Below are positions 12,638 to 31,580 of a stretch of DNA of 64,000 nucleotides, piece by piece (the first letter of the stretch is position 1; the number at the start of each line of letters is the position of its first letter). This DNA is from Gammaproteobacteria bacterium. Lineage in GTDB: Bacteria; Pseudomonadota; Gammaproteobacteria; JACCYU01. The notes under the pieces are model-generated. The model had not been told where the DNA came from, ran no database searches, and saw only the letters and a program-made list of their open reading frames with translations. The stretch is taken from the NCBI GenBank assembly GCA_050740315.1, contig JBOIDC010000004.1, positions 4,918 to 68,917 on the forward strand. The letters run 5' to 3'. The translations under genes were made by a program, and so were the position numbers.

Positions 12638-12677
12638 ACGCTGGATTATTCGATCCGGACGCCGCCGGCATTCATGA

Positions 12678-13160
12678 TCAGTAGGCGGGCTTTTCGCTGC
12701 GCAGAAACAGCAGCGCGCCCGACGGCCTTTCCGCCGCGCCATGCGGCAGCCCCCTGGGCGCGAAATGATAGTCGCCGGCTTTCAATATCACGCCTTCTCC
12801 GAGATGCAGTTCGCCCTCCAGCACCAGACATTCCTCGTCGGCCACGTGCACGTGCGCGGGCAGCCGCGCGCCAGGCTCGCGCCGCAGCCGGAACGATGTC
12901 GCGCGCGCGGCACTGATCAATAACCAGGTGTGCGGACGGCCGCGCTTGCCGTCGCATTTCGCGGCATGGCGCCAGACCTGCGGAAACACGTCGATCACGA
13001 CATCTTCCGCCATATCCGGCTATTTGGTGGTGGCCAGCGCGACCGTAAACGCGCGGCATGGTCGCCTCGTAAAACGCATTGAAGGCGTCCCTGTCGCGGC
13101 GCGCAATCCGGTCGATGAGCAGCGCGTAGTTTTCATCCGCCGCTCCGCCGTGACGCGGGC
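12678..13160 (-). pseudogene. Degraded ECF sigma factor / ChrR-type anti-sigma remnant: sigma region-2 fused to an anti-sigma cupin domain, with a frameshift
   Basis: ADENYALLIDRIARRDRDAFNAFYEATMPRVYG (sigma-70 region 2.1) lies in one frame. AEDVVIDVFPQVWRHAAKCDGKRGRPHTWLLISAARA (region 2.2-2.4) lies in another and runs directly into a cupin (HVHVADEECLVLEGEL...GDYHFAPRGLPHG). Sigma region 4 and the anti-sigma zinc domain are absent. Confidence 0.55.
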
Positions 13161-13535: not shown

Positions 13536-14930
13536 ATGGCGCTGTGGAAACCCGACCCGACCTTTTATCCCTCCCCCCGCATGGCGATGCAGGCGCCACC
13601 CGAAACGCTGGCGTACGTCGCAGCCTTCAATCCGACGCCTGATGGCCGCCCGGATGCGATGACCGTGGTGGACCTGGCGCCCGACTCGTCCAGCTATGGC
13701 CAGATCGTCGGCCGCACCGAGATGCCGAACGCCGGCGATGAACTGCATCACTTCGGCTGGAACGCATGCAGCTCGGCGCTATGCCCGTACGCGCCGCACC
13801 CGCACATCGAGCGGCGTTATCTGGTGGTGCCGGGGCTCCGCTCGTCGCGCATCCATATCATCGATATCAAGCCTGATCCCCGCAATCCGAAGCTCGTCAA
13901 GACCATCGAGCCGGAAGACGTTTTCAAACGCGCGCCGTATTCACGCTTTCATACGATCCATTGCGGGCCGGAGGGCATCTACATCAGCGCGCTGGGATCG
14001 CAGGACGGTGATGGGCCGGGCGGCATCTTTCTGCTGGATCACTTCTCGTTCGACGTGCTGGGCCAGTGGGAAATGGAGCGCGGCCCGCAGTATCTGGCCT
14101 ACGACTTCTGGTGGCATCTGGCGCACGACACGATGATTACCAGCGAATGGGGCACGCCGAACATGATCGAGAACGGTCTGGTGCCGGATCTGCTGCTGAA
14201 CGGGAAATATGGCCGCCACGTGCACATCTGGGATTTGCGCCGGCGGCGGCACGTGCAGGCGCTCGATCTGGGCGCGGAGCAGCAACTGGTGCTGGAATTG
14301 CGCGCCGCGCATGATCCCACCAGGACATATGGTTTCGTCGGCGTGGTGATCTCGCTCAAAGACCTGTCGAGTTCGATCTGGCTCTGGCATCGCGACAACG
14401 GCGAGTGGAAAATCCAGAAGGTCGTCGAGATTCCCGCCGAATCGGCCGAACCTGAAAACCTGCCGCCGTTGCTGCAAGGCTTCAAGGCAGTGCCGCCGCT
14501 GGTCACCGACATCAATCTGTCACTTGACGATCGGTGGCTGTACGTCTCGTGCTGGGGCACGGGCGAGCTGCGGCAGTATGACGTATCCGATCCGTTCAAA
14601 CCCGAGCTCACCGGTTCGGTGCATCTGGGCGGCATCGTGCGCCGCACGCCGCATCCCAAAAAACCAGATCAACCTTTGAACGGCGCGCCGCAGATGGTGG
14701 AGGTGAGCCGCGACGGCAAGCGCGTGTATTTCACCAACTCGCTGTATCACGCCTGGGACGAGCAGTTCTATCCGGAGGGCATGCAGAGCTGGATGGTGAA
14801 GCTCGATGCGAATCCCGCCGGCGGCCTCAGGATCGATCCGGACTTCTTCGTAGCGTTCCACGGCTACCGCGCACACCAGATCCGCCTGGACGGCGGCGAC
14901 TGTTCTTCGGATTCTTATTGCTATCCGTGA
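13536..14930 (+). CDS. Selenium-binding protein SBP56 family (methanethiol oxidase MtoX / SELENBP1 homologue)
   Basis: 464 aa with the family hallmarks recalled from SELENBP1: DELHHFGWNACSS, HCGPEG, LSLDDRWLYVSCWGTGELRQYD, C-terminal GGDCSSD. An AAGGAGG ribosome-binding site precedes the ATG. Confidence 0.9.
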   Translation: MALWKPDPTFYPSPRMAMQAPPETLAYVAAFNPTPDGRPDAMTVVDLAPDSSSYGQIVGRTEMPNAGDELHHFGWNACSSALCPYAPHPHIERRYLVVPGLRSSRIHIIDIKPDPRNPKLVKTIEPEDVFKRAPYSRFHTIHCGPEGIYISALGSQDGDGPGGIFLLDHFSFDVLGQWEMERGPQYLAYDFWWHLAHDTMITSEWGTPNMIENGLVPDLLLNGKYGRHVHIWDLRRRRHVQALDLGAEQQLVLELRAAHDPTRTYGFVGVVISLKDLSSSIWLWHRDNGEWKIQKVVEIPAESAEPENLPPLLQGFKAVPPLVTDINLSLDDRWLYVSCWGTGELRQYDVSDPFKPELTGSVHLGGIVRRTPHPKKPDQPLNGAPQMVEVSRDGKRVYFTNSLYHAWDEQFYPEGMQSWMVKLDANPAGGLRIDPDFFVAFHGYRAHQIRLDGGDCSSDSYCYP

Positions 14931-15650: not shown

Positions 15651-16205
15651 ATGGCGTCGGTACGCAGAATCGATTGGCTGAGTGTCGAGGACTATCTCGT
15701 CGCGGAAGAGGTGGCCGAGGTACGGCACGAGTATGTCGCGGGCGCCGTGTACGCGATGGTGGGTGCCACCGCGCGCCATAATCGCATCGCCGTCAGGCTC
15801 GCATCTCGTCTGGAGTCGCACCTTGCTGGTTCGCCGTGCCAGACGTTCATCTCCGACATGAAAGTCTGCGCCGCCGACGCGTTTTATTACCCGGACGTAA
15901 TCGTGACCTGCCAACCCGTGGCGCCCGAGGCCGTTTACCTCACCGAACCCGTGCTGATCGCGGAAGTGCTATCGGAATCCACCGAAGGACGCGACCGGCT
16001 GGAAAAGTGGGCGGCTTATCGCGCGCTGCCGAGCCTGCGCGAATACGTGTTGATCGCCCAGGACCGCCCGGCCGTTGAAGTTTATCGGCGCAATGAAGAG
16101 GGCTGGGATCAAATCAGCCTGGATTCGGGTGAGACCATGGAACTCGTCTCGCTTGACCTCGAGGTTCCCCTAGACGAACTCTACGCCGGATTGCCGACGG
16201 CGTGA
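15651..16205 (+). CDS. Uma2-family (DUF820) endonuclease
   Basis: EYVAGAVYAMVGATARHNRIAVRLASRL... pattern typical of Uma2 PD-(D/E)xK proteins; 184 aa. Confidence 0.75.
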   Translation: MASVRRIDWLSVEDYLVAEEVAEVRHEYVAGAVYAMVGATARHNRIAVRLASRLESHLAGSPCQTFISDMKVCAADAFYYPDVIVTCQPVAPEAVYLTEPVLIAEVLSESTEGRDRLEKWAAYRALPSLREYVLIAQDRPAVEVYRRNEEGWDQISLDSGETMELVSLDLEVPLDELYAGLPTA

Positions 16206-16447
16206 TTGGGTCGGCTAACTTCCGCAACTGAAACTTGCCAAAGCAATTCAGGCTTCGAAGGACGAAACCGCATCGTTGCCGATTGCTATTTGATCCCGTA
16301 GCGTAGGGCTTGGCGCGGTTGCGGCGCACGCGGTTCAATCCTGACCTGCTTGGGGGATCGCTCTGATAACCAACGGAGGCGCGATTCTTCTCGTCTAAGG
16401 CACGACTACTTTTCAGAATTACTGTCTTCCGATGTACAATCGCGTCA

Positions 16448-17503
16448 ATGGGGCGCACGGTGTACACAAATATAAGAGAATCCCTGCGGGAGCTTTACTT
16501 AAAAGATAGCTGCTCTTGGCTGGTCGGCTTCAGCGGGGGCAAAGACAGTACCATGTTGGCATCTTTGGTGTTCAATGCGGTGCTTTCAGTGCCTACCAAC
16601 CAGCGCAAGAAGCCTGTCGCTATTCTTTGTACCGACACGCGCGTGGAGATTCCAGCCATTGTTGAGATGGTTGAAACAACGTTGGCGCGGATGCACAAGC
16701 ATTCCCAGCAGCACGATCTCAACATCGAAGTACACTTGCTAAAACCGCCACCCGAGCAATCGTTCTGGGTCAACATAATCGGCCGCGGCTATCCGCCACC
16801 TAACCGTAAGTTCCGCTGGTGTACGCAGCGCATGAAAATTGACCCCGTCACTGCTTTCGTTAATCAGCGGCTGGGACATTGGGGCGAGCACCTCGGCGCG
16901 CGTCGCGCCGAAAGCTCCACTCGCGGCCAAACGATGGCGGGGCGCGAAAACCGCAATGGCCTGCATCGCCATCCCGATTTGCCCCGCGTGTGGGTGTCCA
17001 ATCCCATTGAATTTCTCACTACCGAGGAAGTCTGGGCGTATCTGTTACAGAAAGCTAATCCTTGGGGCGGCGACAATCGTGCCCTTTATAAGCTCTACGC
17101 CAGCGCCTCCAATGGGGAATGTCCCATTCAAATCGACACCAGCACTCCAGCCTGCGGGCACTCACGATTTGGCTGCTGGACATGCACAGTCGTTGTGCGA
17201 GACAGGGCCAGCGAGGGCCTGCTCGCCGCCGGCGACGAACGCATGGAACATCTGCTCGGTTTTCGCGAGACGCTCCTAGAATTCCGTGATCCTGAAAATG
17301 GCTGGCGCGACAACCGCCGTATGAACGGTGCGCGGGCACCTGGCCCGCTGACAATTGAAGCGCGGCGTGAACTTCTTAAACGCCTGCTCAAATTACAAGA
17401 AGAAACAACCCTGCCACTAATTACTCCAGAAGAATTATTGTTAATTCAGCAAATGTGGAAGGCGGCGCGCGACCCGACGGCGGTCGTGGCGTTGCCCGAA
17501 TAA
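16448..17503 (+). CDS. PAPS-reductase-family PP-loop ATP pyrophosphatase, DndC/SspD-like (DNA sulfur-modification type)
   Basis: PP-loop FSGGKDST. C-terminal CGHSRFGCWTCTVV cysteine cluster reminiscent of the DndC/SspD family; 351 aa. Confidence 0.7.
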   Translation: MGRTVYTNIRESLRELYLKDSCSWLVGFSGGKDSTMLASLVFNAVLSVPTNQRKKPVAILCTDTRVEIPAIVEMVETTLARMHKHSQQHDLNIEVHLLKPPPEQSFWVNIIGRGYPPPNRKFRWCTQRMKIDPVTAFVNQRLGHWGEHLGARRAESSTRGQTMAGRENRNGLHRHPDLPRVWVSNPIEFLTTEEVWAYLLQKANPWGGDNRALYKLYASASNGECPIQIDTSTPACGHSRFGCWTCTVVVRDRASEGLLAAGDERMEHLLGFRETLLEFRDPENGWRDNRRMNGARAPGPLTIEARRELLKRLLKLQEETTLPLITPEELLLIQQMWKAARDPTAVVALPE

Positions 17504-17694
17504 TGAATGACCAGCGGGGTGCCATAATGAATGCCGACCTCAACAAATCAAACCGCTTGCGAGAAACGGAAAAGAAGGTCGCCCAGGAACTCGGCATTCG
17601 CCCCGACACGTTACGCCGCATGTTGGCGAAGGTGGAAGAATACAGTGAAAGTCACCGCGCCCAGGTTTGCCAGATGATTTGCTTAACATCCTAA
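17500..17694 (+). CDS. Small putative HTH DNA-binding protein
   Basis: Short ORF with AQELGIRPDTLRRMLAK helix-turn-helix-like segment. Weak; start uncertain (ATG 17500 or 17524). Confidence 0.3.
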   Translation: MMNDQRGAIMNADLNKSNRLRETEKKVAQELGIRPDTLRRMLAKVEEYSESHRAQVCQMICLTS

Positions 17695-17759
17695 AGGATG
17701 ACCTTTTCGCTCATGAAGAGCGCCGCCCGGTCTCCTCGCGCAATTAACCGCCATCTTGC

Positions 17760-18674
17760 GTGCACGTATTAACTCAAGAACGGCGCTGGCTTAAAGTCGC
17801 CGCGAACCTCAGGGTTGACCGCAAGCACAATATCGCCCCCCACAAGCCGCTTTTGCTATTGGTCGTTGTAGGGCTTGCCGAAGAAGGAAAACTCGCGCGG
17901 CCAGTCTTAGCGCTGACCGGCGAGCTCACATTCCGTTTTCTTGCATTCTGGACAATCGTCGCCAACCGCCGCTCACAGCGACCGGACATTCGCCTGCCGT
18001 TCTATCATCTCCATAACGACGGTTGCTGGACGCTGCTAGACGTCGAAGGAACGACTACTAGCGAACGTAGCCGTGCAGTTACCGCGCAGCTTGACGCACA
18101 GTTCCACGCCTGCCTGCACAATCCCGACTTCCGCGAGCAGTTTCGAAGAATCCTGATCGCGAGGTACTTTACCGACGCCGGCGAACGCGCCGCTCTTTAC
18201 GACTTGACTGACCTGCCAGCTCCGCCCGATGCCATCGAAGAAGCGGACGCCAACCTTTACGTCGAGTCGCGGAGGCGAGGGCGCGAAGCGCGCTTCCGGC
18301 TGACCGTCGTACCGGCCTACAACTACACCTGTGCACTTACCGGTTATCGCTGCGTTACGGTAAATGCCGGCAGCATCGTGGACGCTGCTCACATCCACCA
18401 GTTCGCTGACAGTCGCAACAACTACCCGCAAAACGGTATTGCGCTCTGCAAGAACGCTCACTGGCTTTTCGATCAAGGTCTGTGGTCGCTTACAGACGAC
18501 TACGAGATTATTGTCGCCACACACCGCTTCCATGAGTCTGGAGATAGCGCGCTGCTGCTAGCCCGAATGGCGGGCCATCGCATTCTGCTTCCCGGCAAGC
18601 GAGACTATTGGCCTGACAAAGCGTACTTGGCGTGGCACCGACAACATAGGTACATCAAAGAAAAGACCGAATGA
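17760..18674 (+). CDS. HNH endonuclease with ~190-aa N-terminal uncharacterised (possibly modified-DNA-sensing) domain
   Basis: C-terminal HNH motif: CALTGYRC...DAAHIHQFADSRNNYPQNGIALCKNAHWLFDQGLW; 304 aa. Confidence 0.8.
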   Translation: MHVLTQERRWLKVAANLRVDRKHNIAPHKPLLLLVVVGLAEEGKLARPVLALTGELTFRFLAFWTIVANRRSQRPDIRLPFYHLHNDGCWTLLDVEGTTTSERSRAVTAQLDAQFHACLHNPDFREQFRRILIARYFTDAGERAALYDLTDLPAPPDAIEEADANLYVESRRRGREARFRLTVVPAYNYTCALTGYRCVTVNAGSIVDAAHIHQFADSRNNYPQNGIALCKNAHWLFDQGLWSLTDDYEIIVATHRFHESGDSALLLARMAGHRILLPGKRDYWPDKAYLAWHRQHRYIKEKTE

Positions 18675-18681
18675 TGGAATT

Positions 18682-21599
18682 ATGAGCATCGTTCCAAAAC
18701 ATCGTGGAGCTTCTTTTCACAAGTGTGATCTTCAAGTCCATACGCTCAGGGATGCGAATTGGAATGGGCCCTTTCATCGGCTGAATGACCGAGTAGCTTT
18801 TGCTCAGGCGCTGGTTGCCGACTGCCGGCGCAAGAGCATCGAAGCGATTGCGATCACGGACCATCACGATCTGTGCCTTTGGAGAATTATTCACGATGCT
18901 GCTCAGAATGAGCAGAAGCCGGCTGGTTCGGCAAACCAAGAAGAGGCTTCCCCTGTCGTTTTTCCTGGTGTTGAGCTCACCTTGTCCAACCCCGCTTGCC
19001 AAGCATTGCTGATACTCGATCCAGACTTGACTGACAAGACCCTAAACTACATTTGGGGCGCTCTCGGAGCGACTCCCTCGGGCGTGGACGAGGAAAAGAC
19101 AACTCAGACGGTTGCACTGCCCCTTAACAAGTCCATTGCAACGATCGCCCAAGCGCTCTCCCAAATTCGGCTTAACCCTGAGGAAGCAGATCCAAACAAG
19201 TTCAGATCGCTTAGAGGAAAATTCATATTGTTACCGAATGTGAAGTGTGGTGGACATAAGACGATCATGCGAAAAGGTAACCAGGCGGCTTATACCACGA
19301 TGCCGTTTGTGGGAGGCTACATTGAGGGATGCGAGTATTCATCAATTAATGTGGGAGACTGCAATATTCTTGAAGGACGAGTACAAGCTTGGGGATCAAA
19401 GAGTGTCGCCGTATTTCAGACCTCAGACTGCCGCGAGGCGAAAGTTGTCACTATCGATGGCAATAAGCACACCGATTTCATCAATCTCGGCAAGTGGCCG
19501 ACGTGGGTGAAATGGGCACAACCGTCAACGGAAGCCTTGCGACAGGCATGCTTGGCAAGGCAGTCACGGATCAGCCATACCGAGCCCAGCTACCCTCTTC
19601 TGCAGATCGTGGGGGTGAAGGTGAGTGACAGCCAGTTCCTCGGTCCAGTGGAACTCGGTCTCAGCCCGCAGTTCAATGCTTTTATCGGCGGGCGAGGCAC
19701 CGGTAAATCCTCGTTGATCGAGTACATTCGGTGGGCACTCTGCGATGACCCTGTGGAAGTTTCCGAAATGGTGGAGCTTCCAAATTTTCAAAAGCGCAGG
19801 AAAGCCCTGGTGGAAGCGACACTCAAACCATCCGGAGCGAAAGTGACTGTGTTTTACAAGAAAAACGAGGTCATCTACAAAATTGAAAGGACTATTACCG
19901 CCAAGGAGGACGCCATCGTGGTTGTGGATCCCTCTGGGGCGTCGCAGCAGATGTCGTCGGCTCAAGCTCGCAGACAATTTCCGGTTGTATCGTATGCCCA
20001 GAAGCAGCTAAGTTGCGTGGGTACTCTGCCGGACGAAATTAAACGGCTCATTACAGATCCTATCAGTGAGCGTCTGGCGCAGATTCAGGATCGAATTGAG
20101 ACCTCCATCCTTCCACAAATTAAAGAGCAGCGCGCAAGAGAACTACGTCTCGCCAGCCTGAACACACAGCTTGCCGACATCGCTACATCGCTCAAGGACA
20201 TAAAAGATCAGATTCACGCGCTTGAGATACAATTGCAGGATCTCGCGCCAGAGCAGCAGAGCATCATCTCGTCGCATGAGCTGCTGAGTCAGCAACATCA
20301 GTGGGTGAATCGCTCGGCGGAACTCCCGAGCAAGGTAGCAGAACTCTTGTTGCAGATGCGCCATCAGGTAAGTGCGCTAGGCAAGATTGATCTGCCCGAT
20401 GCCCTACCCAACTCGATACCGAACTCGATCCAAGTCGACGCGATCTCGGCGTCTGCCAACGCCTATGTGAAGAGAGTGCTGGATCAGTTAGATGCCTTGA
20501 TCGCTGATGCGCAATCCGGCAGCTGGCTCAACAAAGCAGATCGCCAAGCCTTAGAGCAACTCCAAAAAAAGCGTACGGTGCTCACCAACGGGAATACAAC
20601 GAATGCGTCAAAACGAGCGCGAAAAACCAGACGCAGATGGAGGAGATTCAAAAGCTCAACAAACAAGTCGGTGAACTCGAAGCCAAGCAGTCAGCGCTAG
20701 AAGCGGAGCGCAAGACTCTTATGGCAGTCTTTGACCGATTTGCTGACACGCCGTGGAAGGCTTTTATGGACGCGGTGCGTGAGCGCGCGAACGTCTTGAG
20801 GGACCAGTGCACCATCATTGGCGGGCAGGCTCAGTACGAATTCAAGCCGCACCTCGCTTTTTGTGGTGATGATCGTCAGGTCCGCGAGTCACTGTATAGC
20901 TTGGTGCAAAACAGAAACGTCAGAGACAGCGATCAGAAAGTAAGAGACTTGGCAGCTATTGTTACCTCTGCGGATCACCCGCTTCAGCGGTGGCGAGAGG
21001 TGGTGGCTGAGCTGGATGCGCTTCTGGCAAGCAAGGGCTCTAACGTACTGCCGCAGGCGCCACTATTTACAAGCTCAGGTTTCACGACAGCTAATCTTGA
21101 ATCAATTCGAAACGGGGTCACACAGGACGCGTTGGAGCAAATCCGTTTCTTGAACATCGACGATCGAATCGAATTCGTCTTTCGCATGGGCAAAAAGACA
21201 GATGGATCGGATAACTACATTCCTTTTGATTCTGCATCACCAGGACAGCAGGCTACGTGTCTGCTTCGCACGTTACTCGCGCAATCAGGTGCGCCCCTGC
21301 TGATAGATCAGCCCGAAGAAGATCTTGATAACGAGCAGATCCACCTGCTTTCCGAGCAAATTGCGGAAACCAAGCACAACAGGCAAATGCTGTTTGTAAG
21401 CCACAATGCAAATATCGTCGTCAACGGAGATGGGGAACTTATAGCCTGTTTCTGCTACCGCGACCCTAACGACAACACCCGCGGGAAGATCGAGCCGGTC
21501 GGCTCTATTGACTACGCTCCTGTGCGCGAAACTATTACATCAGTAATGGAAGGGGGCCGCCGGGCATTCGAATTACGCAAAGAAAAATATGGTTTTTGA
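18682..21599 (+). pseudogene. PHP-domain phosphoesterase fused to SMC/ABC-type coiled-coil ATPase (PplA-like / DndD-like), split by a frameshift around 20560-20640
   Basis: N-terminal PHP metal-ligand pattern (CDLQVHT...AIAITDHHD). Walker A FNAFIGGRGTGKSSL at ~aa 335; long coiled coil. The ABC signature SPGQQ, Walker B LLIDQPEEDLD and H-loop FVSHNANI lie in a second ORF (20637-21599) in a different frame. An A7 run sits at 20562-20568. Confidence 0.7.
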
Positions 21600-22322: not shown

Positions 22323-23453
22323 TCAGCCACGAAGGTCCTGAGCCGCTTGCTTCACGACAGCCGCAGTCAAATCAATCTCGTGAGCCTGCTTCATAGCGTT
22401 GAGTGAAAAACGAACCATTTGCCGTGCGGCCGGCTGATTCGGCTTCATTGCCTTAACAACATGCGACGGTTCGTCGGAATCAGCCAAGCAAGCCGACCCT
22501 CCCGACGCGCAAATACCCGCTTGGTCAAATAGTAGCAACAATGCTTCGGATTCAACGCCGTGGAAGGTAATATTGGTCGTGTTTGCCAGCCGCTGAATCT
22601 TATGCCCATTCAGCTCGGTATCCGGTACCGAGTCCAGAATACTTTCCTCTAAAGTATCGCGGAGCGGGCGCACTTTCTTCTCATAACTCGGCAAGCTCTT
22701 ACGCGCGAGTTCGGCGGCTCTGCCCATGCCGACGATCAAGGCGACGTTTTCCGTACCGCCACGCCGATTACGCTCCTGGTGTCCGCCGTGGACAAACGGC
22801 AAAAACGGTGTCTTACGGCGGACGTATAATGCGCCTATTCCCTTCGGTGCGTGGAATTTGTGGCCGGTGAGCGACAAATAATCGGTCTGCACCTCGCGCA
22901 CATCAATATCGATTTTACCAACGGCCTGTACCGCGTCGCAGTGGTATAAGACCCCTCGCGAGCGGCAAATGTCAGCTATCGCGTTCACCGGGAATAGCAC
23001 TCCGGTTTCATTATTCGCCCACATGAGCGAGACCACAGCCGTTTCATCCGAAATCGCGTTCGCCAAATCCGCCAGCTTCAAGACACCGTCGTAATCCACC
23101 GGCAGATAAGTTACCCGATAGCCCTCGCGCTCGAGCGCCATACAGTAGTTCAGCACCGAGGAATGCTCGACCGCTGATGTGACGATGTGCCGTTTGCTCG
23201 GATTGGCTTTCAGCGCCGCAAGGATGGCCGAATTATTGCTCTCCGTCGCGCAAGACGTGAAAACGATCTCCAGCGGGTGTGCTCCGATCAGCTCTGCGAC
23301 CCGCGCCCTGGCCGTCTCGACCGCCGTCTTCAGCTTCGACCCAAACTTATAGCTGCTGGATGGATTGCCCCACTCAGATGTGAAGTAAGGCATCATCGAG
23401 TCCAGCACTTCCGGGGACACCGAAGTAGTTGCATTACTATCAAGGTAAATCAT
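22323..23453 (-). CDS. Cysteine desulfurase (class V aminotransferase, IscS/NifS/DndA-like), stand-alone
   Basis: MIYLDSNATT N-terminus, PLP-lysine region SLTGHKFHAPKGIGALYV, active-site SGGSAC. No iscU/iscA/hscBA follow. Confidence 0.9.
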   Translation of the reverse strand: MIYLDSNATTSVSPEVLDSMMPYFTSEWGNPSSSYKFGSKLKTAVETARARVAELIGAHPLEIVFTSCATESNNSAILAALKANPSKRHIVTSAVEHSSVLNYCMALEREGYRVTYLPVDYDGVLKLADLANAISDETAVVSLMWANNETGVLFPVNAIADICRSRGVLYHCDAVQAVGKIDIDVREVQTDYLSLTGHKFHAPKGIGALYVRRKTPFLPFVHGGHQERNRRGGTENVALIVGMGRAAELARKSLPSYEKKVRPLRDTLEESILDSVPDTELNGHKIQRLANTTNITFHGVESEALLLLFDQAGICASGGSACLADSDEPSHVVKAMKPNQPAARQMVRFSLNAMKQAHEIDLTAAVVKQAAQDLRG

Positions 23454-23745
23454 ATTCCCCTTACAAGTAATTAATCCAAACTCGGTCGACGGCACCCGCA
23501 GCTCGCCCCCGAGCTCACGGTCGGCCGCGACCTCGGATTCGATGGGCAGTTTATGTCAGGGACACCTTGGCCCTGATCCTAAACCCATTGCGCGAGTGCC
23601 GACGGCGTTCAGCGTCGAACGGGGCCTCAGTGCCCCTATTAGCCTCGGCATAGTTTATCCCACGTTCGGTGGCCTATTTGAGCGAATGCAATACGGTCAT
23701 GGGCATTGAAAACTCACGGTACTAGCCGCAGTTCACCTCCGCAAC

Positions 23746-24390
23746 TCAAGCGATACCCTTCATGGCTCTCGCCGTCATCAATCCCCACAGCCAGTTGATC
23801 TTGTAGCGTTCGATCTCCACCTGGGCGTGCCCGGTTTCCTGCAAAAGTCGCGCGCATTCCCGCTCCGCGTAAGTCTTGAAATGCGCGCGGCTGAACCAGC
23901 GCAGATACAGATCGCAGAGACGGCAAGCCAGGTAGTCATCGCACCAGTCAGTGATGATCAGCCGGCCGCCCGGGCGCAGCACGCGATCCATCTCGTGCAA
24001 CGCCTCGACGGGCTGTCGGATGTAGTGAAATACGTTGCACGAGACGACGACATCGAATTGTTGCGCTTCGAAGGGTAGCCGCTCCGCCCAGCCTTCACGC
24101 AGATCGACCGAGTCCGAAAGCCGCCGCCGCGCAACATCGAGCATCTCCCGCACGGGATCGACGCCGGCCAATTGCGCGCGCGGGTGAGTACCAATAAGGC
24201 GATCGAGCAAAACGCCGGTACCGCAGCCGACATCGAGCACGCGGTCGCGTGGGCCCAGCCGCAGACGCGCCAGTGTCTCTTCGATCGTGGCCTCGATATA
24301 GAACCGCCACCTCTTGTCGTAATCGCTTGCGAGTCGTGCGTATTCCTCGACTATCGGCTCGCGCGATCGACGCCGCCGGGGCTTAGCCAT
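23746..24390 (-). CDS. Class I SAM-dependent methyltransferase (UbiE/COQ5-like, type 11)
   Basis: VLDVGCGTGV motif I, DVVVSCNVFHY, LRPGGRLII. Confidence 0.8.
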   Translation of the reverse strand: MAKPRRRRSREPIVEEYARLASDYDKRWRFYIEATIEETLARLRLGPRDRVLDVGCGTGVLLDRLIGTHPRAQLAGVDPVREMLDVARRRLSDSVDLREGWAERLPFEAQQFDVVVSCNVFHYIRQPVEALHEMDRVLRPGGRLIITDWCDDYLACRLCDLYLRWFSRAHFKTYAERECARLLQETGHAQVEIERYKINWLWGLMTARAMKGIA

Positions 24391-24545
24391 CGCCGGTGTA
24401 TTTCAACGCGCTCGACGCCGGGATGACGCGTCCGCTCAATTTCGCTGCGAGTTTTGTGCGGTACGGCATGCAGCGGTTTTCATCGGCAACATCCAATCTT
24501 TCAAAAGTAAGGTATATAGTACTTGTCCATACGCAAACATCCGGC

Positions 24546-25151
24546 ATGCGGCGCCATAAAAGCTTGAGCATTACTCGCCTCGGTTTAATCTTCGTTTGGG
24601 CCGGAGCAATCCTGTTCCTCGGGCCGGGTTGCGACCCGGAGACGGCTACCGACCGCGAACCCGCGGGCGCCAACGCCGATGCGGATCACGACGCAGCGGG
24701 CAAGAAAACCGCAGCGTCCAAACAGGCCGCGGCGGTGTTCGATGCGAGCTTCCACAAACTCGAAGACTGGAACCAGATGCAATCGCTCTCGAAATGGCGC
24801 GGCCAGTATCTGGTGCTGAATTTTTGGGCGACCTGGTGCAAGTCCTGCCACCACGAAGTGCCGGAGCTGAACAAGCTCTACAACCAGTTCAAGGACAAAA
24901 ATACCGTGGTCGTGGGTCTTGCCGTGGATAATGCCGACAAGGTCAAAGATTATGCGGCGAAATATGGCGTCGATTATCCGATCCTCGTGGGCGGTAACGA
25001 GGCGCTGGAATTATCGAAAAAGATGGGCAACAAGGTCGTCGGACTGCCCTTCACGATCATGATCACGCCGCAAGGCGAAGTGGTCGAGACCATTCTCGGC
25101 GCCACCGAGAAAGGCACTCTGCCCAAGGTTCTCACGCCGCATCTAATGTGA
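24546..25151 (+). CDS. TlpA/ResA-like periplasmic thiol:disulfide oxidoreductase (thioredoxin fold), probable lipoprotein
   Basis: Signal peptide ...AILFLGPGC, WATWCKSC active site. Likely start is the internal ATG at 24546. Confidence 0.8.
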   Translation: MRRHKSLSITRLGLIFVWAGAILFLGPGCDPETATDREPAGANADADHDAAGKKTAASKQAAAVFDASFHKLEDWNQMQSLSKWRGQYLVLNFWATWCKSCHHEVPELNKLYNQFKDKNTVVVGLAVDNADKVKDYAAKYGVDYPILVGGNEALELSKKMGNKVVGLPFTIMITPQGEVVETILGATEKGTLPKVLTPHLM

Positions 25152-25189: not shown

Positions 25190-26731
25190 ATGCGACTATT
25201 AAAAATTCCGACTGCCAATACGCGCAGGGCGAGTCCCAGGGTATTGGCGGCGGCCTTCGGCGTAGGGCTTGGGGTCGCCGTGTCGGGCGCGGCGCTCGCC
25301 AAGGACTACCCAACCGTCACAGTGGTTGATCCGTCGCCGGTGAACTGGCTTTGGATAACGTGGAACACCATGGAAGAAGCGGTGCGCGTGGACTACAACG
25401 GCCACACGCAACCCGCGCTGGCGGAGAGCTGGGAATGGAAAGATAACCAAACGCTGACGCTAGACATGCGCGACGACGCGGTGTTTCAGGACGGCAGCGC
25501 GTTCGATCCCGCGGTGTTCAAGCGCAGCTTCGACGAGGTGCAGAAGTGGGAAAACCCGCATCCGCCGGGCGCCTGGCTGAATTTCTCCAAGCAGGCCAGC
25601 ATGGAGACGCCGGATGATGACACGGTGGTGTTCAACACCGCGATGGTCGACGGCACCACCATCACCAAACTGCGCGGCATGCACGTCGGCAGCCAGAAGT
25701 TCTGGGGGCAGGGCGGTTTCAACACCGCCGAAGGCTCATCCGAAGGGAATTGGTGAGTCATCAAAGAACCCGGTCCGTGGGGGACTGGGCCATTTGAACT
25801 GGTAGCAGGTACGTCGTTGCTCGACAAGCGTTCTCCCGAAGTTGTGCTGGAGCCCAATGAAGAATACTGGAATCCGGCGCGTAAACCGACGGTGCGCGTG
25901 GTGTTCGACAATGTTATTCCGAAGGCCGAGGCCGTGAAAGACGTCGGCAGCGCGGACGGCGAGATCGATATTGTCACTGAACTGACACCGGCCGAGGCCC
26001 AGCAGGTGGAAGACAGCGATGCCGCAAATGTGGTCGCGAGCGACTCGAAGACCGTGCTGCTCGGGGTCTTCAATCAGACCAGCGGCGATTCCAAATGGAA
26101 TGACGTCAATCTGCGCAAGGCGGTCAACTACGCGGTGGATCGGCAAGGCGTCATCGATGACGCGATGATGGGTTACGGCAATCTCATGCCGGCCACCATC
26201 CTCGAAGGGAATTTCGGTTACAACGATAGTCTGGAGCCTTATGCGCATGACCCGGAGCAGGCCAGGCGGCTTGCGAAGGACGCCGACAAGACCGTCACCA
26301 TCGTGACCGACGAAGCGCACAAGGGCGTGGCCGATGCCGTGGCCGCGGATCTGAACGCCGCCGGTTTCGACGCGACCGTTAAGGTCGGAGAGCCTGCAGG
26401 CGAGTGGGACATCTGGCTAGTCGAGCACTTCGACTGGTCGCCGGAGTTCCCCGCCGCCGTGGTGCATCGCGAGTTCTTCGGCGACACGGGCGGGTTCCTC
26501 AAGTCACCGGGCGACAAGCAACTACAGGGCTTGATCGATCAGGCGATGAGTACCGTCGATAAGGACGAGCAGGAAGAAATCACGCAGGCGATCGAGAAAC
26601 ACATCTACGATCACGCCGATGCGCTGTTGCTGTTCGCGCCGCAAAAACTCTACGCGGTGCGCGACGGCGTGGACTTCACGCCTTACAAGTCCACGGTGCT
26701 GGAACTGGCGGAGACCATGGTGGACGAGTAA
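25190..26731 (+). pseudogene. ABC transporter substrate-binding protein, family 5 (peptide/nickel/opine type) with a single in-frame TGA at 25754-25756. Either a nonsense pseudogene or, less likely, a UGA-Sec readthrough.
   Basis: AGGAGG ribosome-binding site then ATG 25190. Signal peptide; family-5 motifs (ALAESWEW..., GTGPFEL, EPNEEYW). The reading frame is continuous across the TGA, and ORFs 25148-25756 and 25817-26731 are in the same frame. Total ~513 codons, normal for the family. Confidence 0.6.
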
Positions 26732-26840
26732 GGATGTGGCTGCGGCAACAACCGTCTGGCCCTCGCACGGGGCCAGATTTTTTTCAGCCTTGGGTGGTTG
26801 CGAACTCGCGTAAGGCAGACCGCCCGGCCGGGAGATTGAA

Positions 26841-28793
26841 TTGATCATCGGCACTGCGGGTCATATCGATCACGGCAAGACCGCGCTCATCAAGGCATTG
26901 ACCGGCATCGACGCGGACCGCCTGGCCGAAGAGAAACGGCGCGGCATGACGATCGATCTGGGCTACGCGTATCACGAGCTGCCGGACGGCAATGTGATGG
27001 GCTTCGTGGATGTGCCCGGGCACGAGAAGTTCGTACACAACATGCTGTCGGGCGCGCTGGGTATCGACTATGTGCTGCTGGTGATCGCGGCCGATGACGG
27101 GCCGATGCCGCAGACTCGCGAACATCTGGCGATCGTCGATCTGCTGGCGATGAAGGAGGGTGTCGTGGCGCTTTCGAAAATCGATCTGGTCACACCGGCG
27201 CACATTGAAGAGACCGAACACGCGATACGCTCGATGCTGGCGGGCACGAGTCTCGCGGGAGCCGACGTTATGCGCGTATCCACGAAGAGCGGCTCTGGCC
27301 TCGATGCGCTTTACAAGCGGCTGGCGGAAGTCGCGAGAATACAATCACCCCGCGCCAGTAGCGGCCAATTCAGGCTGGCGGTGGATCGCTCATTCAGCGT
27401 GCGAGGCGCGGGCACCGTCGTGACCGGCACCGTGCATGCTGGCACGGTGCGCCCGGACGATCGTCTGACGGTTTCGCCGGCCGGCCTGAGCGCGCGGGTG
27501 CGCAGCATTCGCTGCCAGAACAAACAAACCAGTCTCGGACGGGCGGGCGATCGCTGCGCACTGAACCTGGCTGGCGCGAACCTTGATGCGCGGGCCATAC
27601 AGCGTGGCGACTGGATTCTCGCGCCGGTTCTGCACCGGCCTTCCGCGCGGCTCGATTGCCGGCTGCATATCTTGCTTTCGGAACCACGTCCGCTGCGCCA
27701 CTGGACGCCGGTGCATGTGCACGTCGGCGCGGCGGATATTAGCGGTCGCGTCGCGGTTCTGGAGAAGGAATCCATCGATCCCGGCGCGTCTGGGCTGGTA
27801 CAAATCGTACTGGACAAACCGATACCGGCGCTGCACGGCGACCGATTGATACTGCGCGATCAGTCGGCGCTGCGCACGGTTGGCGGCGGCTACGTGCTCG
27901 ATCCGACGCCGCCCGCGCGCGGGCGGCGCAAGCCGTATCGACTAGCGTCGCTTGCGGCGCTCGAACAACCGGCGCCCGCTGAGGCGCTCGAACGTCTGCT
28001 CGACCTGCGAGGCGCTACAGGACTGGATCTGGACTGGTTCGGCTTTGTCTGGAATCTGCGCGCTGAAGAATTCTACCGCCTTCAAAGCACGTGCGAGTTC
28101 CATGTCTTCGAAGCTACGGGAAATCGTACAGGCATCAAGTTTGCCGCCTGGCAGGCGCTGCGGAACGACGTTATCGAAGCGCTTGCCGAGCACCATCGGC
28201 GCGCACCGAATGAAACCGGCATCACCGAGGGCAAGCTCCGGCAGCTGCTGCGCGACCAGGCACCCGGCGCTTTGGTGAAGCTTGCGGTCAATGAATTGAT
28301 CGCCGAAGGTGCGATCCTGCGTCACGGCGCGCTGTTGCATCTGCCGGGGCATGTCGATCGCCTGTCGCCGATCGAGGAAAACCTGTGGCGGCGGTTGTAT
28401 GCGAAGATCGACGCGGGCGGACTGCGACCGCCCCGCCCGCGCGAGCTGGCCGAAATGTTCCGGGAGGATCGGACGCGCATCAAGGCGTTGCTCAAGCGCC
28501 AGGCGAAAGCCGGAAAAATCTGCGAGATTTCCGACGAGCTTTATTACCCGCTGCACACCATCGCCGAACTGGCCGCCACGACCGAGGCGCTTTGCAATGC
28601 GCAAAACGGCAACCCCATCACCATGCGCATCTTCCGCGAGGGCACGGGCATCGACCGTAACGTCACCATCGAGGTGCTGGAATATTTCGACCGCGTGGGC
28701 CTGACCTTGCGCGTCAATAACGGACGGCGGCTGCAGGGGACCGCGGCCGCAATCTTCGGCGCGCGGGACTCGAATCGGGTGGCGCGCTTATAA
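26841..28793 (+). CDS. selB: Selenocysteine-specific elongation factor SelB (TTG start)
   Basis: MIIGTAGHIDHGKT..., DVPGHEKF, then C-terminal winged-helix domains ending ...ILEYFDRVGLT. Collinear with E. coli SelB as recalled. GGAG lies 7 nt upstream of the TTG. Confidence 0.92.
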   Translation: MIIGTAGHIDHGKTALIKALTGIDADRLAEEKRRGMTIDLGYAYHELPDGNVMGFVDVPGHEKFVHNMLSGALGIDYVLLVIAADDGPMPQTREHLAIVDLLAMKEGVVALSKIDLVTPAHIEETEHAIRSMLAGTSLAGADVMRVSTKSGSGLDALYKRLAEVARIQSPRASSGQFRLAVDRSFSVRGAGTVVTGTVHAGTVRPDDRLTVSPAGLSARVRSIRCQNKQTSLGRAGDRCALNLAGANLDARAIQRGDWILAPVLHRPSARLDCRLHILLSEPRPLRHWTPVHVHVGAADISGRVAVLEKESIDPGASGLVQIVLDKPIPALHGDRLILRDQSALRTVGGGYVLDPTPPARGRRKPYRLASLAALEQPAPAEALERLLDLRGATGLDLDWFGFVWNLRAEEFYRLQSTCEFHVFEATGNRTGIKFAAWQALRNDVIEALAEHHRRAPNETGITEGKLRQLLRDQAPGALVKLAVNELIAEGAILRHGALLHLPGHVDRLSPIEENLWRRLYAKIDAGGLRPPRPRELAEMFREDRTRIKALLKRQAKAGKICEISDELYYPLHTIAELAATTEALCNAQNGNPITMRIFREGTGIDRNVTIEVLEYFDRVGLTLRVNNGRRLQGTAAAIFGARDSNRVARL

Positions 28794-28803
28794 TCGCAAG
28801 AAT

Positions 28804-28900
28804 GGAAGAGATTCGATCCCCGGTGGGGCGTCCGGACTTCAAATCCGGGAGGGGCCGTCACGCGGTCCTTGGTGGGTTCGACTCCCACTCTCTTCCGCCA
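28804..28900 (+). tRNA. selC: tRNA-Sec (selC), anticodon UCA
   Basis: 97 nt: GGAAGAG...GGACTTCAAATCC...long variable arm...GGTTCGACTCC...CTCTTCCGCCA. Near-identical architecture to E. coli selC. Confidence 0.9.
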
Positions 28901-28921: not shown

Positions 28922-30346
28922 ATGGATGAAGATAGGTCCCGCCGGTTCTCGGCGCTGCCGTCGGTGGAAAAGCTGCTGCGTACCGAGTCGCTGGCGCGGC
29001 AAAGCGAACGCTACGGTCGGCGCGCCGTATTGGACGCCGTGCGCGCCGCGCTGGAACAAGCGCGCGCGGCGATCCGCACCGGCGACTGGAAGACGAACGA
29101 TAGCCTTGGTCTTCTGCAGGCGCGTTGCGAGTCTTTGCTGGAAAAACAGTTTCAATCGGCGCTCAGGCCGGTTTTTAATCTTACCGGAACCGTTTTGCAC
29201 ACCAATCTCGGCCGCGCACCGTTGCCGGCGGCGGCGGTGCACGCGCTTCGCCTGGCAGCGGGCGCCTGCAACGTCGAATACGATTTGACAACCGGCGAAC
29301 GCGGGCAGCGCGAGACGCACATCGAAAAGCTGCTCGTGGAACTCACCGGCGCGGAGGCCGCAACGGTAGTCAATAACAATGCCGCAGCCGTGGTGCTCGC
29401 GCTGAGCACCCTGGCGGCGGGGCACGAAACCATCGTCTCGCGCGGCGAGTTGGTGGAGATCGGCGGCGCCTTCAGAATCCCGGACATCATGACGAGTTCG
29501 GGCAGCCGCCTGTGCGAAGTGGGCACCACGAACCGCACGCATGCGAGAGACTATCGCGATGCGATTGACCCGAACACGGCGCTGATCATGCGGGTACACA
29601 CCAGCAATTACGAGATCCGCGGATTCACCAAGTCCGTGCCGGAGAAAACCCTGGCGGCTCTGGCGCACGAGCGCGGCCTGCCCCTGCTGGTGGATCTGGG
29701 CAGCGGCAGCCTGGTAGATTTGGCGCAATACGGTTTGCCGCACGAACCTACGCCCGCCGAGAGTCTGGACGCCGGCGCCGATCTCGTTACATTTTCCGGC
29801 GACAAGTTGCTCGGCGGGCCACAGACGGGACTGATCGTCGGACGCAAGGAATTGATCGACAGGATCAACCGGAACCCGCTCAAGCGCGCCTTACGGATCG
29901 ACAAATTGATCATGGCCGCGCTGGAGGCGGTGCTGAAGTTGTACAAATCCCCGGAGTTTTTGGCTAGAGATTTACCGGGCTTACGACTGCTGACCCGGCC
30001 CGCCAGTGAGATCGAGGAGATGGCGCGCAGGCTGCGTCCGCGCATGCAGGATGCATTGTCCGGCGTTTGTGAAATCGAGGTGGAGGCGTGCGAGAGTCAA
30101 ATCGGCAGTGGTTCGCTGCCGGTGGATTGCCTGCCGAGCTGGTGCATTTCGATCAGGCCCTCGTTCGCGCAAAAAAATGCAGGCCGTTTTCTGGAGCAAA
30201 TGACATCGCGTTTGAGAGATCTGCCCGTTCCCATCATCGGCCGCACCCACAAAGGCGCGATCAAATTGGATTTGCGCTGTCTGGAAGACGAGCCATTGTT
30301 CATCGAACAGCTGAACGCGCTACCGGACCAGCCTGCGGCCGGCTAG
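28922..30346 (+). CDS. selA: L-seryl-tRNA(Sec) selenium transferase SelA
   Basis: SALRPVFNLTGTVLHTNLGRA, VVSRGELVEIGGAFRIPD, EVGTTNRTHA, FSGDKLLGGPQ (PLP-lysine). Collinear with E. coli SelA. Confidence 0.92.
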   Translation: MDEDRSRRFSALPSVEKLLRTESLARQSERYGRRAVLDAVRAALEQARAAIRTGDWKTNDSLGLLQARCESLLEKQFQSALRPVFNLTGTVLHTNLGRAPLPAAAVHALRLAAGACNVEYDLTTGERGQRETHIEKLLVELTGAEAATVVNNNAAAVVLALSTLAAGHETIVSRGELVEIGGAFRIPDIMTSSGSRLCEVGTTNRTHARDYRDAIDPNTALIMRVHTSNYEIRGFTKSVPEKTLAALAHERGLPLLVDLGSGSLVDLAQYGLPHEPTPAESLDAGADLVTFSGDKLLGGPQTGLIVGRKELIDRINRNPLKRALRIDKLIMAALEAVLKLYKSPEFLARDLPGLRLLTRPASEIEEMARRLRPRMQDALSGVCEIEVEACESQIGSGSLPVDCLPSWCISIRPSFAQKNAGRFLEQMTSRLRDLPVPIIGRTHKGAIKLDLRCLEDEPLFIEQLNALPDQPAAG

Positions 30347-30372: not shown

Positions 30373-31179
30373 TCATACGCTCAAGGTGCAGATGGCTTTG
30401 GGCTCCATCAGCAGCGGCACGATGCTCTCGCTGATGAACAGATGATAATGAATGCCGTCGTTCGAGGAATAGCCGGCCATGGCGTCCTGGCCCACCACCA
30501 GCGCGCCGACTCTGGCGTCGACCAGCACGGCGTCCTCGATCGGCGCCTTATAGATGCCCAGCTTGCACAGGCGCCGCAGGTGGTCGTGCTGCAGCATGTC
30601 GGTGCCTTCGTAGCGCTTGAACAGGTTGTTGTAATGGCCGGGCGGTAACGCCAGCGCGTATGGCCCGTAAAAACCCGCCTTGTCCAGGGTCTCCACCGCC
30701 TTGAGCACGTCGTTGATGGACTGCTCGACCTTGGACCAGTCGCCCATCGGAACGTCATTGCGGCCCTTGGCGGTTAACAGACCTTCCACGCCAAAGTCGG
30801 GCGAACCGTTGTAGATAAAATCTTCCTCGCGGCGCGCGACCGCTTCGGCGGCGTCTTCGATGGGGCTGGACTCGAAGCGCTGCCCCATGTGCAGATGCGC
30901 CTCCACCTGCCGGATGCTGAGCTTGAAATTCTTGCGCAGCATCGGCACGGAGATGGCGCGGCTCAGCACCGCGGCGGCCTCGTCTTCGCCCGGCTCCCGG
31001 CAGAAGTCGTCCGCGCCTACTTCCAGCGAGGTCATGCCCACGCCATAAGGCCCTTCCAGATCCATGAAGCGACGCGCGGTCAGCGCGTCGCGCATGGCTT
31101 CCACGGCGGCCTTATCGATTTCGCTCCAGATCTGCGCCGGCAGGGGCGTATTTTCGCGATTGAGATAACGCATGATCAC
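30373..31179 (-). CDS. Family 1 encapsulin nanocompartment shell protein (linocin M18-like)
   Basis: 268 aa, collinear with T. maritima encapsulin as recalled (W-x-E-I-D, DLEGPYG, GPYALAL, C-terminal LLMEPKAICTL). Confidence 0.85.
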   Translation of the reverse strand: MIMRYLNRENTPLPAQIWSEIDKAAVEAMRDALTARRFMDLEGPYGVGMTSLEVGADDFCREPGEDEAAAVLSRAISVPMLRKNFKLSIRQVEAHLHMGQRFESSPIEDAAEAVARREEDFIYNGSPDFGVEGLLTAKGRNDVPMGDWSKVEQSINDVLKAVETLDKAGFYGPYALALPPGHYNNLFKRYEGTDMLQHDHLRRLCKLGIYKAPIEDAVLVDARVGALVVGQDAMAGYSSNDGIHYHLFISESIVPLLMEPKAICTLSV

Positions 31180-31580
31180 GTTCCTTTCAGACTGCCGACC
31201 GTCAGCCGCATGGTCGGCGGAGGTTCATCGGCCGCCGGGACGCCGCCGTTATCCGGGTCGGCTTCGCCACCGTTCATGGCTTCGTCCTCGACCTCGGTGA
31301 TCGGGCCTTTGCTGAACAGATAGGTCTTCAGCCGCGCGTCCAGGTCATCGCTGTTACGGCGCAGCCACTCCAGCACCATGCAGGCGTGTTCCATTTCTTC
31401 GCGCATGTTGTGCAGCAGCACCTCCCGCAGTTGTTGATCCGACGCGGCGTCCGCGCGCTGCCGGTACCAGTCCACCGCCTCCAGCTCTTCCTGCAGGGAA
31501 ACGAGCGCGCGGTGCATATCGCGGGTGGACTCGGACAATAATTCCAGCGGCTCATGATAGCTTTCGCTAGCGCCCGCCAT
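31176..31580 (-). CDS. Encapsulated ferritin-like cargo protein (EncFtn) with C-terminal encapsulin targeting peptide
   Basis: Ferritin-like EEMEHACMVLEWLRR motif; C-terminus ...PTMRLTVGSLKGT (canonical GSLKG-type targeting peptide). Overlaps the shell gene by 4 nt. Confidence 0.8.
   Translation of the reverse strand: MAGASESYHEPLELLSESTRDMHRALVSLQEELEAVDWYRQRADAASDQQLREVLLHNMREEMEHACMVLEWLRRNSDDLDARLKTYLFSKGPITEVEDEAMNGGEADPDNGGVPAADEPPPTMRLTVGSLKGT

Follow-up and report, generated by a model that had tools for sequence, protein, structure and literature searches.

A predicted selenoprotein family with a family-5 binding-protein fold, encoded among selenium-utilization genes of Proteobacteria

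A 64,000-nucleotide stretch of a gammaproteobacterial genome (GenBank assembly GCA_050740315.1, contig JBOIDC010000004.1, positions 4,918 to 68,917 of the forward strand; hereafter the window, in whose own numbering all its positions are given) contains, upstream of selB, selC and selA, a gene for a family-5 ATP-binding cassette (ABC) substrate-binding protein interrupted by a single in-frame TGA (25190–26731, plus strand). Comparative sequence evidence makes it very likely that this TGA (25754–25756) is a selenocysteine (Sec) codon. With a probability of roughly 0.85, the gene belongs to a new selenoprotein family built on the complete family-5 (cluster C) binding-protein fold, in which the window copy is exported and its Sec is most likely redox-active and recycled by a TlpA-like protein. 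We infer Sec insertion itself from a conserved UGA, a conserved and covarying downstream hairpin, synteny, the fold and a division of the family into exported and presumably cytoplasmic forms.

The open reading frame (ORF) runs from an ATG at 25190 to a TAA at 26729–26731. It comprises 514 codons with exactly one in-frame stop, the TGA at codon 189 (context ...SEGNW-TGA-VIKEPGPWGTGPFEL...), and its predicted product in the window has 513 amino acids, with Sec at residue 189 and without any cysteine. When codon 189 is filled in, profile PF00496 (SBP_bac_5) matches residues 74–420 as one stretch through the TGA (158 bits), and homologs from 69 loci align across it from about residue 1 to 513. 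NCBIfam returned only NikA, CntA, Opp and Dpp matches to the window protein, all far below their cut-offs. These ORF and profile matches bear out the preliminary description of the window, which had reported an otherwise intact family-5 binding-protein gene with one in-frame TGA upstream of selB-selC-selA. The N-terminus (25190–25300) carries a predicted export signal, MRLLKIPTANTRRASPRVLAAAFGVGLGVAVSGAALA, in which TRRAS may be a twin-arginine motif and a hydrophobic stretch precedes the conserved VVDPSP (Kyte-Doolittle 10-residue maximum 2.34); the cleavage site and the twin-arginine assignment are predictions from sequence.

The homologous loci come from a scan of one genome per GTDB species; 62 of the 69 include the TGA site, in 64 gene copies. 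Every one of these copies (64/64) has TGA there, which settles the question, raised beforehand, of whether orthologs have TGA or TGC there. Both halves are open in the 57 complete copies, and the TGA is their only in-frame stop. Carriers occur in the Alpha-, Beta- and Gammaproteobacteria and in the Gemmatimonadota. Among them are cultured Methylobacterium and Methylorubrum, with the type strains DSM 14458 and DSM 19013, as well as Hyphomicrobium, Beijerinckiaceae, Acetobacteraceae and other Rhodospirillales; on the Burkholderiales side Methylophilaceae/Methylotenera, Methylibium/Rhizobacter and other Burkholderiales; and further Chromatiales, Nevskia and one Gemmatimonadales metagenome-assembled genome (MAG). 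The lineage of the window itself is a gammaproteobacterial MAG group. In one Beijerinckiaceae copy (L059, 6001–7421) the N-terminal frame is broken and 44 codons are open before the UGA, possibly through decay or an assembly error.

Both halves vary as coding sequence does, position 3 being much more variable than positions 1 and 2: nucleotide entropies at codon positions 1/2/3 are 0.69/0.53/1.23 bits in the N-terminal half and 0.83/0.68/1.36 bits in the C-terminal half, with mean pairwise identities of 64% and 54%, respectively. The Sec site follows the motif [HNQ]-W-U-V-[IL], again without cysteine; the predicted peptide in Methylobacterium and Methylorubrum is ...AEG(H/N)W-U-VIDAPGPWGTGPF. 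Databases hold the gene as fragments, because gene callers everywhere stop at the same TGA. When the full-length protein was searched against 5.8 billion proteins, the best 120 matches were all C-terminal fragments of 283–339 residues (54–63% of the query, 45–100% identity), and the best 120 matches to the N-terminal half were all fragments of 147–215 residues. In RefSeq, the records of Methylobacterium phyllosphaerae and M. radiotolerans, among others, label these pieces "ABC transporter substrate-binding protein".

Just past the TGA lies a hairpin that, on strong comparative evidence, behaves like a bacterial selenocysteine insertion sequence (SECIS). The element (25761–25797, plus strand) has two tiers. 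Its upper stem pairs CCCGGTCC (25769–25776) with GGACTGGG (25782–25789), starts 12 nucleotides (nt) after the TGA and encloses the apical loop GTGGG (25777–25781); its lower stem pairs UCAAA (25761–25765) with UUUGA (25793–25797). An 8-bp stem with a GUGGG loop 12 nt after the TGA had been pointed out from the window sequence, and it is indeed present at 25769–25789 (RNA form CCCGGUCC-GUGGG-GGACUGGG). The loop opens with G-U 20 nt after the UGA, on an upper stem of 7–8 bp and a lower stem of 4–5 bp. Criteria of the bSECISearch type describe a stem-loop directly past the UGA, with a G opening a small apical loop about 16–37 nt from it, and in the E. coli fdhF element the critical G23/U24 stand at a very similar distance from the UGA; the geometry of our hairpin matches both.

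Selection on the hairpin is visible at synonymous sites. Its codons GGU, CCG, GGG and ACU (+6, +7, +9 and +10, with an intervening UGG), which make up its apical part of stem and loop, have codon entropies of 0–0.49 bits among the 57 genes, compared with 0.92–1.77 bits at 52 other four-fold-degenerate columns of at least 90% amino-acid conservation; all four lie below the minimum of the comparison columns (naive rank probability ~3e-6). Folding of the 48 nt from the UGA by minimum free energy gives the exact apical hairpin in 50/64 copies and a register-shifted hairpin at the same place in the other 14/64. Two non-Sec sister genes served as a control: the GPWGTGPF peptide motif is spelled there in different codons, and the hairpin is missing (TGG-GGA-...GGC CCC TGG GGA ACG in L077; TGG-CAG-...GGC GGG TGG GGU ACC in L078). 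The Gemmatimonadales locus (L008, 6514–6576) keeps the hairpin through two linked, register-shifting changes (GGCCC-GUG-GGGC.C).

The lower stem adds covariation. RNAalifold pairs the third base of codon +3 with that of codon +12 (GAC..CCG versus GAU..CCA), and this pair is C-G in 31 sequences, U-A in 20, U-G in 2 and unpaired in 2. Across all 11 pairs of the structure, pairing is found in 97% of cells, and in 16–66% once the partner is slid by 1–3 columns, and none of 500 column shuffles reached the observed covariation score. The U-A state is found in separate clades, namely a Burkholderiaceae group, most Hyphomicrobium, Acetobacteraceae and some second paralogs. Since the sequences are related, we take the covariation as supporting, not decisive. 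Rather than the uniform tryptophan and missing SECIS that the preliminary description had named as signs against Sec, the comparison thus yields TGA in every copy and a conserved hairpin, and its suggestion that Sec readthrough deserved a check is strongly supported by hairpin conservation, covariation and synteny with selB, selC and selA. The exact hairpin sequence recurs nowhere else in the window, by a search that is blind to selenoproteins with a different SECIS sequence.

The window holds the whole Sec machinery, as selA, selB, selC and selD are all present. On the plus strand follow selB, the Sec-specific elongation factor (26841–28793; TIGR00475, 430 bits; SECIS-binding winged-helix domains PF09106 and PF09107), selC, the tRNA-Sec with anticodon UCA (28804–28900; ARAGORN; Rfam RF01852, 71 bits), and selA, selenocysteine synthase (28922–30346; TIGR00474, 587 bits). 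The selD gene lies 13 kb upstream of the selenoprotein gene on the minus strand (10397–12742), in a 781-residue ORF with an N-terminal pyridine-nucleotide-disulfide oxidoreductase domain (TIGR03169, 427 bits; TIGR00476, 288 bits). The linkage extends to other genomes: selB stands directly 3′ of the gene in 54/69 loci, selA was found in 33, tRNA-Sec in 33/47 scanned loci, and nearby selD genes recur, some free and some carrying the oxidoreductase domain. Also recurrent is a PhnCDE-like transporter whose binding protein belongs to TIGR04553, "putative selenate ABC transporter substrate-binding protein". From this synteny with selB, selA, tRNA-Sec, selD and the TIGR04553 transporter, the gene is therefore a selenoprotein gene encoded within a selenium-utilization island.

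Several observations concern these neighbors in their own right. The selD fusion also adjoins the selenoprotein gene at loci of Hyphomicrobium and Chromatiales (L001, L024–L026, L032 and L060). The PhnCDE-like ABC transporter is found beside sel genes in Methylophilaceae, Nevskia, Methylorubrum and Beijerinckiaceae (L075, 14676–19100; L074, 1–4213); its binding protein matches TIGR04553 at 360 bits, and the transporter may be dedicated to selenium uptake. A consensus scan located a terminator-like hairpin between the selenoprotein gene and selB (26754–26785, plus strand; 10 bp, GC-rich, followed by seven T's), so that selB may be transcribed separately or by readthrough of this intrinsic-terminator-like element.

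Non-Sec relatives show what the scaffold looks like. Among 1.84 billion cluster representatives, searched exhaustively by HMMER with the C-terminal half as query, full-length relatives reach at most 38% identity (34–38% for the closest). The column of the Sec holds glycine in P0130, P0138, P0145, P0146, P0150 and P0153, glutamine in P0140 and valine in P0128, hence neither the tryptophan nor the cysteine between which the preliminary description had expected a choice. The one glycine-form gene read as DNA (L077, encoding P0138) uses GGA, a single base change away from UGA. The motifs VVDPSP...NW and (A/G)EGxW are common to P0140, P0145 and the family, which is why we regard these two proteins as its true sister group. 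We used P0140, the closest full-length non-Sec relative, for an AlphaFold model in place of the Sec protein itself. The model (predicted local distance difference test score 91, predicted template modeling score 0.90) has a complete cluster-C binding-protein fold, and its best matches in the Protein Data Bank (PDB) are all family-5 binding proteins, with template modeling (TM) scores of 0.64–0.84. Identity to solved structures is about 14–19%, the nearest by sequence being NikA of Brucella and of E. coli (4oer, 1uiv). In the NikA alignment the Sec falls within a six-residue insertion, NWUVIK, just before P-x-GTGP, which NikA lacks. The lack of cysteine homologs suggests that Sec was gained on a binding-protein scaffold rather than replacing a cysteine.

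Despite its fold, the protein probably does not serve an ABC importer as its binding subunit, as judged from gene content: Dpp/Opp-type partner genes are missing, a whole subfamily is predicted to be cytoplasmic, and some genomes hold one copy of the exported and one of the cytoplasmic type. No Dpp/Opp/Nik-type permease or ATPase genes were found within ~10 kb in the window and six other neighborhoods, an ABC ATPase query had no match in the window, and the only ABC genes nearby are the PhnCDE-like ones, which have their own TIGR04553 binding protein. An N-terminal signal peptide is present in 38 copies, including that of the window, and some of these carry a clear SRRRFSLL twin-arginine motif in place of the window's TRRAS. 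The 18 copies without one, from Methylobacterium, Acetobacteraceae and Beijerinckiaceae, have a short, glycine-rich, hydrophilic N-terminus and should be cytoplasmic. The earlier label of ABC substrate-binding protein therefore holds for the fold (PF00496) but is doubtful for the function, given the absence of Dpp/Opp-type partners and of a signal peptide in about a third of copies. Two tandem selenoprotein gene copies, both with UGA and hairpin, were seen in one Beijerinckiaceae genome (L027, 3700–7521, the same as L074, 7135–10978); copy 1 has a signal peptide and lies 3′ of a DsbD and a TlpA-like gene, copy 2 lacks a signal peptide and precedes selB, and a small TOBE-domain gene separates the two.

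Export goes together with a thiol reductase gene. Directly upstream in the window lies the gene for a TlpA/ResA-like thioredoxin-fold thiol:disulfide oxidoreductase (24396–25151, plus strand; public gene call from about 24546; Redoxin, AhpC-TSA, Thioredoxin_8 and ResA/TlpA matches), with a WCKSC motif and an N-terminal membrane anchor or lipobox, which is a likely reductant partner. By targeted tblastn and precomputed Pfam neighborhoods, a TlpA-like homolog stands directly upstream in 31 loci, accompanying 25/33 forms with a signal peptide versus 1/16 forms without (Fisher p = 5e-6). In Hyphomicrobium and Beijerinckiaceae the gene order is DsbD, TlpA-like, selenoprotein gene. The window has two adjacent, weakly DsbD-like ORFs (8117–9912, minus strand; PF11412, DsbD_N, 39 bits; 28% identity to the membrane part of a Beijerinckiaceae DsbD by tblastn), which are a possible electron supply for the TlpA-like protein. 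An OhrR-like MarR regulator with a QLCFALY motif occurs near the gene in 11 loci, and isolated neighborhoods contain a second TlpA-like gene, an AhpD-like CMD protein, MsrA or SOD.

We propose the following working model. SelB carrying Sec-tRNA(Sec) would bind the GGUCC-GUGGG-GGACU stem-loop on its short lower stem, letting the ribosome read through the UGA and complete the 513-residue protein. In the oxidizing periplasm, the TlpA-like CxxC reductase, which is membrane-anchored and encoded alongside, would recycle the selenol of the window protein or keep it reduced, with electrons that DsbD would bring from the cytoplasm, and the protein may work there as a reductase or peroxidase whose substrate sits in the binding cleft. 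Cytoplasmic paralogs would use general thiol systems instead. Such a reductase or peroxidase function is plausible from the gene context, and a redox role with TlpA/DsbD is the mechanism best supported by it, although we give it somewhat less than an even chance.

A number of findings speak against the selenoprotein and its proposed redox role. The foremost is the missing cysteine homolog: the closest full-length relatives carry glycine, glutamine or valine at the Sec column, and no full-length cysteine form was among the best 120 matches of either the full-length or the N-half search. Most accepted selenoprotein families include cysteine forms, so this absence is unusual, and it is the main reason why our confidence stays below 0.9. 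The folding energy of the hairpin is by itself unexceptional (z = -0.85 against dinucleotide shuffles, in a GC-rich sequence) and cannot tell it from shuffled sequence, which is why we rely on comparison across genomes. In that comparison the upper stem is nearly invariant and thus offers little covariation, so that the signal comes from one lower-stem pair in related sequences. Rfam gave no SECIS match, either for the whole window at the gathering threshold or for 25700–25860 at E <= 10. The terminator-like hairpin parts the window gene from selB and leaves their co-transcription putative, and the case for a redox role is drawn entirely from gene neighborhood.

The alternative that survives best accepts the selenoprotein and differs on its chemistry. 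The selenolate could serve as a ligand, the protein binding or carrying a soft metal or metalloid (for example a selenium species on its way to SelD, or Hg, Cu or Ni) along the lines proposed for the selenoproteins SaoB and SaoX, with TlpA merely keeping the selenol reduced. The fold and the nickel or metallophore binders among its nearest solved relatives (NikA, 4oer and 1uiv) fit this idea, as do the position of the gene amid selD and the TIGR04553 transporter genes and the presence in the window of an SBP56 homolog and a NifS-like desulfurase; metal-ligand roles of Sec have also been proposed for SaoB by Haft and Gwadz (bioRxiv 10.1101/2022.07.06.499078). However, one Sec without any cysteine provides no second soft ligand of the kind found in the CU/CC motifs of SaoB and SaoX, there is no cognate permease, and cytoplasmic paralogs exist. 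The linkage to sel genes is equally explained if the Sec machinery works mainly for this protein, and the OhrR-like regulators and thiol-reductase neighbors point to redox stress, not metal handling. On balance, we consider a ligand or trafficking role unlikely, and behind the redox role in support.

The remaining alternatives dispense with selenium in the protein and fare far worse. The UGA might be read through by a near-cognate tRNA inserting Trp, Cys or Gly, or might act as a selenium-sensing translational gate for the downstream sel genes. The position of the gene directly upstream of selB in most loci and the Gly or Gln tolerated in sister proteins would agree with this. Against these readings stand a conserved SelB-type hairpin with G-U at the loop start, the full Sec machinery, the terminator-like hairpin before selB in the window, and paralogs away from selB (L038, L045, L048 and L063), which retain both UGA and hairpin. 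We regard either version as very improbable. Slightly less probable still is a split gene, in which the UGA terminates translation and polypeptides of ~188 (N) and ~324 (C) residues, the latter made by GTG re-initiation, are produced apart and then assemble. Public annotations do call two genes, and GTG directly follows the TGA in 35/57 genes, but in the other 22/57 the next codon is GTC or GTA, which is no start codon, and the next in-frame start in the window, 20 codons past the TGA, would delete the invariant GPWGTGPF motif. Moreover, an exported N-half could not meet a C-half that has no signal peptide, and the frozen synonymous sites, the covarying stem and the constant pairing with selB would be left unexplained; we reject this reading on the 22 genes without a start codon, the hairpin constraint and the selB pairing. 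A pseudogene created by a recent TGG-to-TGA or GGA-to-TGA nonsense mutation in an ordinary binding-protein gene, which the preliminary description had considered the simplest explanation and which the ORF split by gene callers and the GGA glycine codon of a sister might suggest, is refuted by TGA in 64/64 copies over three phyla or classes, by two conserved, coding-type halves with no other stops, by selection on the hairpin at synonymous sites and by 45–82% divergence among loci, which excludes assembly artifacts of a single sequence.

The selenoprotein reading can be set against known systems. Like E. coli genes of the fdhF/fdnG type, the window gene has an in-frame UGA followed some nucleotides later by a two-tier stem-loop with an apical G-U, and, as with other bacterial selenoprotein genes having a SECIS within the ORF, the genome has selA, selB, selC and selD, with sel genes adjoining the client gene. 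In contrast to FdhF and FdnG, its product is a solute-binding fold without cofactor-binding domains or cysteine orthologs, neither a molybdoenzyme nor a thioredoxin-fold protein. SaoB and SaoX of the SAO locus are closer in kind, being Sec-bearing proteins of periplasmic-binding-type folds that are usually truncated in databases. They belong, however, to other binding-protein families (related to PDB 3VVE, 4ZV2 and 4NMY), have CU or UxP motifs and several cysteines, occur only in anaerobes and come with their own permease and ATPase, whereas the present family is of family 5, has [HNQ]-W-U-V-[IL] without cysteine, is found in aerobic Proteobacteria and has no permease. The SaoB and SaoX models, NF040727 and NF040735, were not among the NCBIfam matches of the window protein. 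With NikA, CntA, DppA and GsiB the protein shares PF00496 over residues 74–420, and the sister model superposes on such proteins with the TM scores given above; it differs in the Sec insertion that NikA lacks, in having no partner transporter and in its cytoplasmic members.

For the proposed electron path, the counterpart is the chain from DsbD/CcdA through TlpA/ResA/CcmG to a client. Examples of such periplasmic reductive systems are TlpA with ScoI/CoxB and the thioredoxin-MsrA/B protein PilB. As there, a TlpA-like CxxC gene lies beside the presumed client, in some genomes with DsbD as well; here, by contrast, the client would be a selenol on a binding-protein fold, with electron transfer being our inference. 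To our knowledge, no selenol client on a binding-protein fold is known for DsbD/TlpA systems.

The recoding mechanism would thus be the standard bacterial one, and the protein family is most likely new as a selenoprotein, none having been described in the sources we checked. NCBIfam release 20 (June 2026) has no dedicated model for it. We found no family-5 binding-protein selenoprotein in the literature, the families of Haft and Tolstoy 2025 being covered through the table of a 2026 review of prokaryotic selenoprotein families; the only binding-protein selenoproteins listed in that review are SaoB and SaoX, and PF00496 goes unmentioned (PMC13188914). The family is likewise absent from the main text of the BSepDB paper (PMC13326102), and Haft and Gwadz stated in 2022 that they were aware of no earlier ABC binding-protein selenoprotein (bioRxiv 10.1101/2022.07.06.499078).

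Further genes of the window surround those discussed above. Close to the selD fusion, a gene on the plus strand (13536–14930) encodes a full-length member of the 56-kDa selenium-binding protein family SBP56 (PF05694, 665 bits; weak match to the methanethiol oxidase MtoX), possibly a further selenium-handling protein of the same island. On the minus strand (22323–24390), upstream of the TlpA-like gene and divergent from it, are genes for an S-adenosylmethionine (SAM) methyltransferase and for a NifS-like cysteine desulfurase, which scores 525 bits with TIGR03402, slightly short of the cut-off; the methyltransferase weakly resembles arsenite methyltransferases and selenoprotein-type methyltransferase families, and neither gene is kept beside the selenoprotein gene in other loci. 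Directly after selA, on the minus strand (30373–31580), are genes for a family-1 encapsulin shell (NF041155, 250 bits) and an encapsulated ferritin-like cargo protein (TIGR04535). Five plus-strand genes at about 15651–21599, among the selenium genes, resemble a DNA-defense or phosphorothioate-sensing island, with Pfam matches to Uma2, PAPS_reduct, a ScoMcrA sulfur-binding domain with HNH, AAA_23/SMC-like and AAA_21; these matches come from the public contig and were assigned to the window ORFs by size and order only.

The selenoprotein reading, if true, extends the known selenoproteins by a family whose fold is unexpected and which lacks a cysteine counterpart, and recognizing it would correct many database entries, including RefSeq records of cultured Methylobacterium. 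With the sel genes physically tied to the selenoprotein gene, it may also account for the retention of a complete Sec machinery in many Proteobacteria that are aerobic and non-fermenting. If the Sec is catalytic, a binding-protein fold has been recruited as a redox enzyme, and the family may turn out to represent a new type of enzyme. Put together, and more tentatively than any of its parts, we speculate that this is the first catalytic selenoenzyme on a cluster-C scaffold: obligately selenium-dependent, since there are no cysteine orthologs; existing in TlpA/DsbD-recycled periplasmic and in cytoplasmic forms; in Methylobacterium and many other aerobic methylotroph-type Proteobacteria, the chief client of the Sec machinery; and performing a novel reductase or peroxidase reaction, possibly under OhrR-type control by organic hydroperoxides. 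Family members are present in genetically tractable methylotrophs, in which selenium incorporation, the TlpA/DsbD link and the substrate are directly testable.

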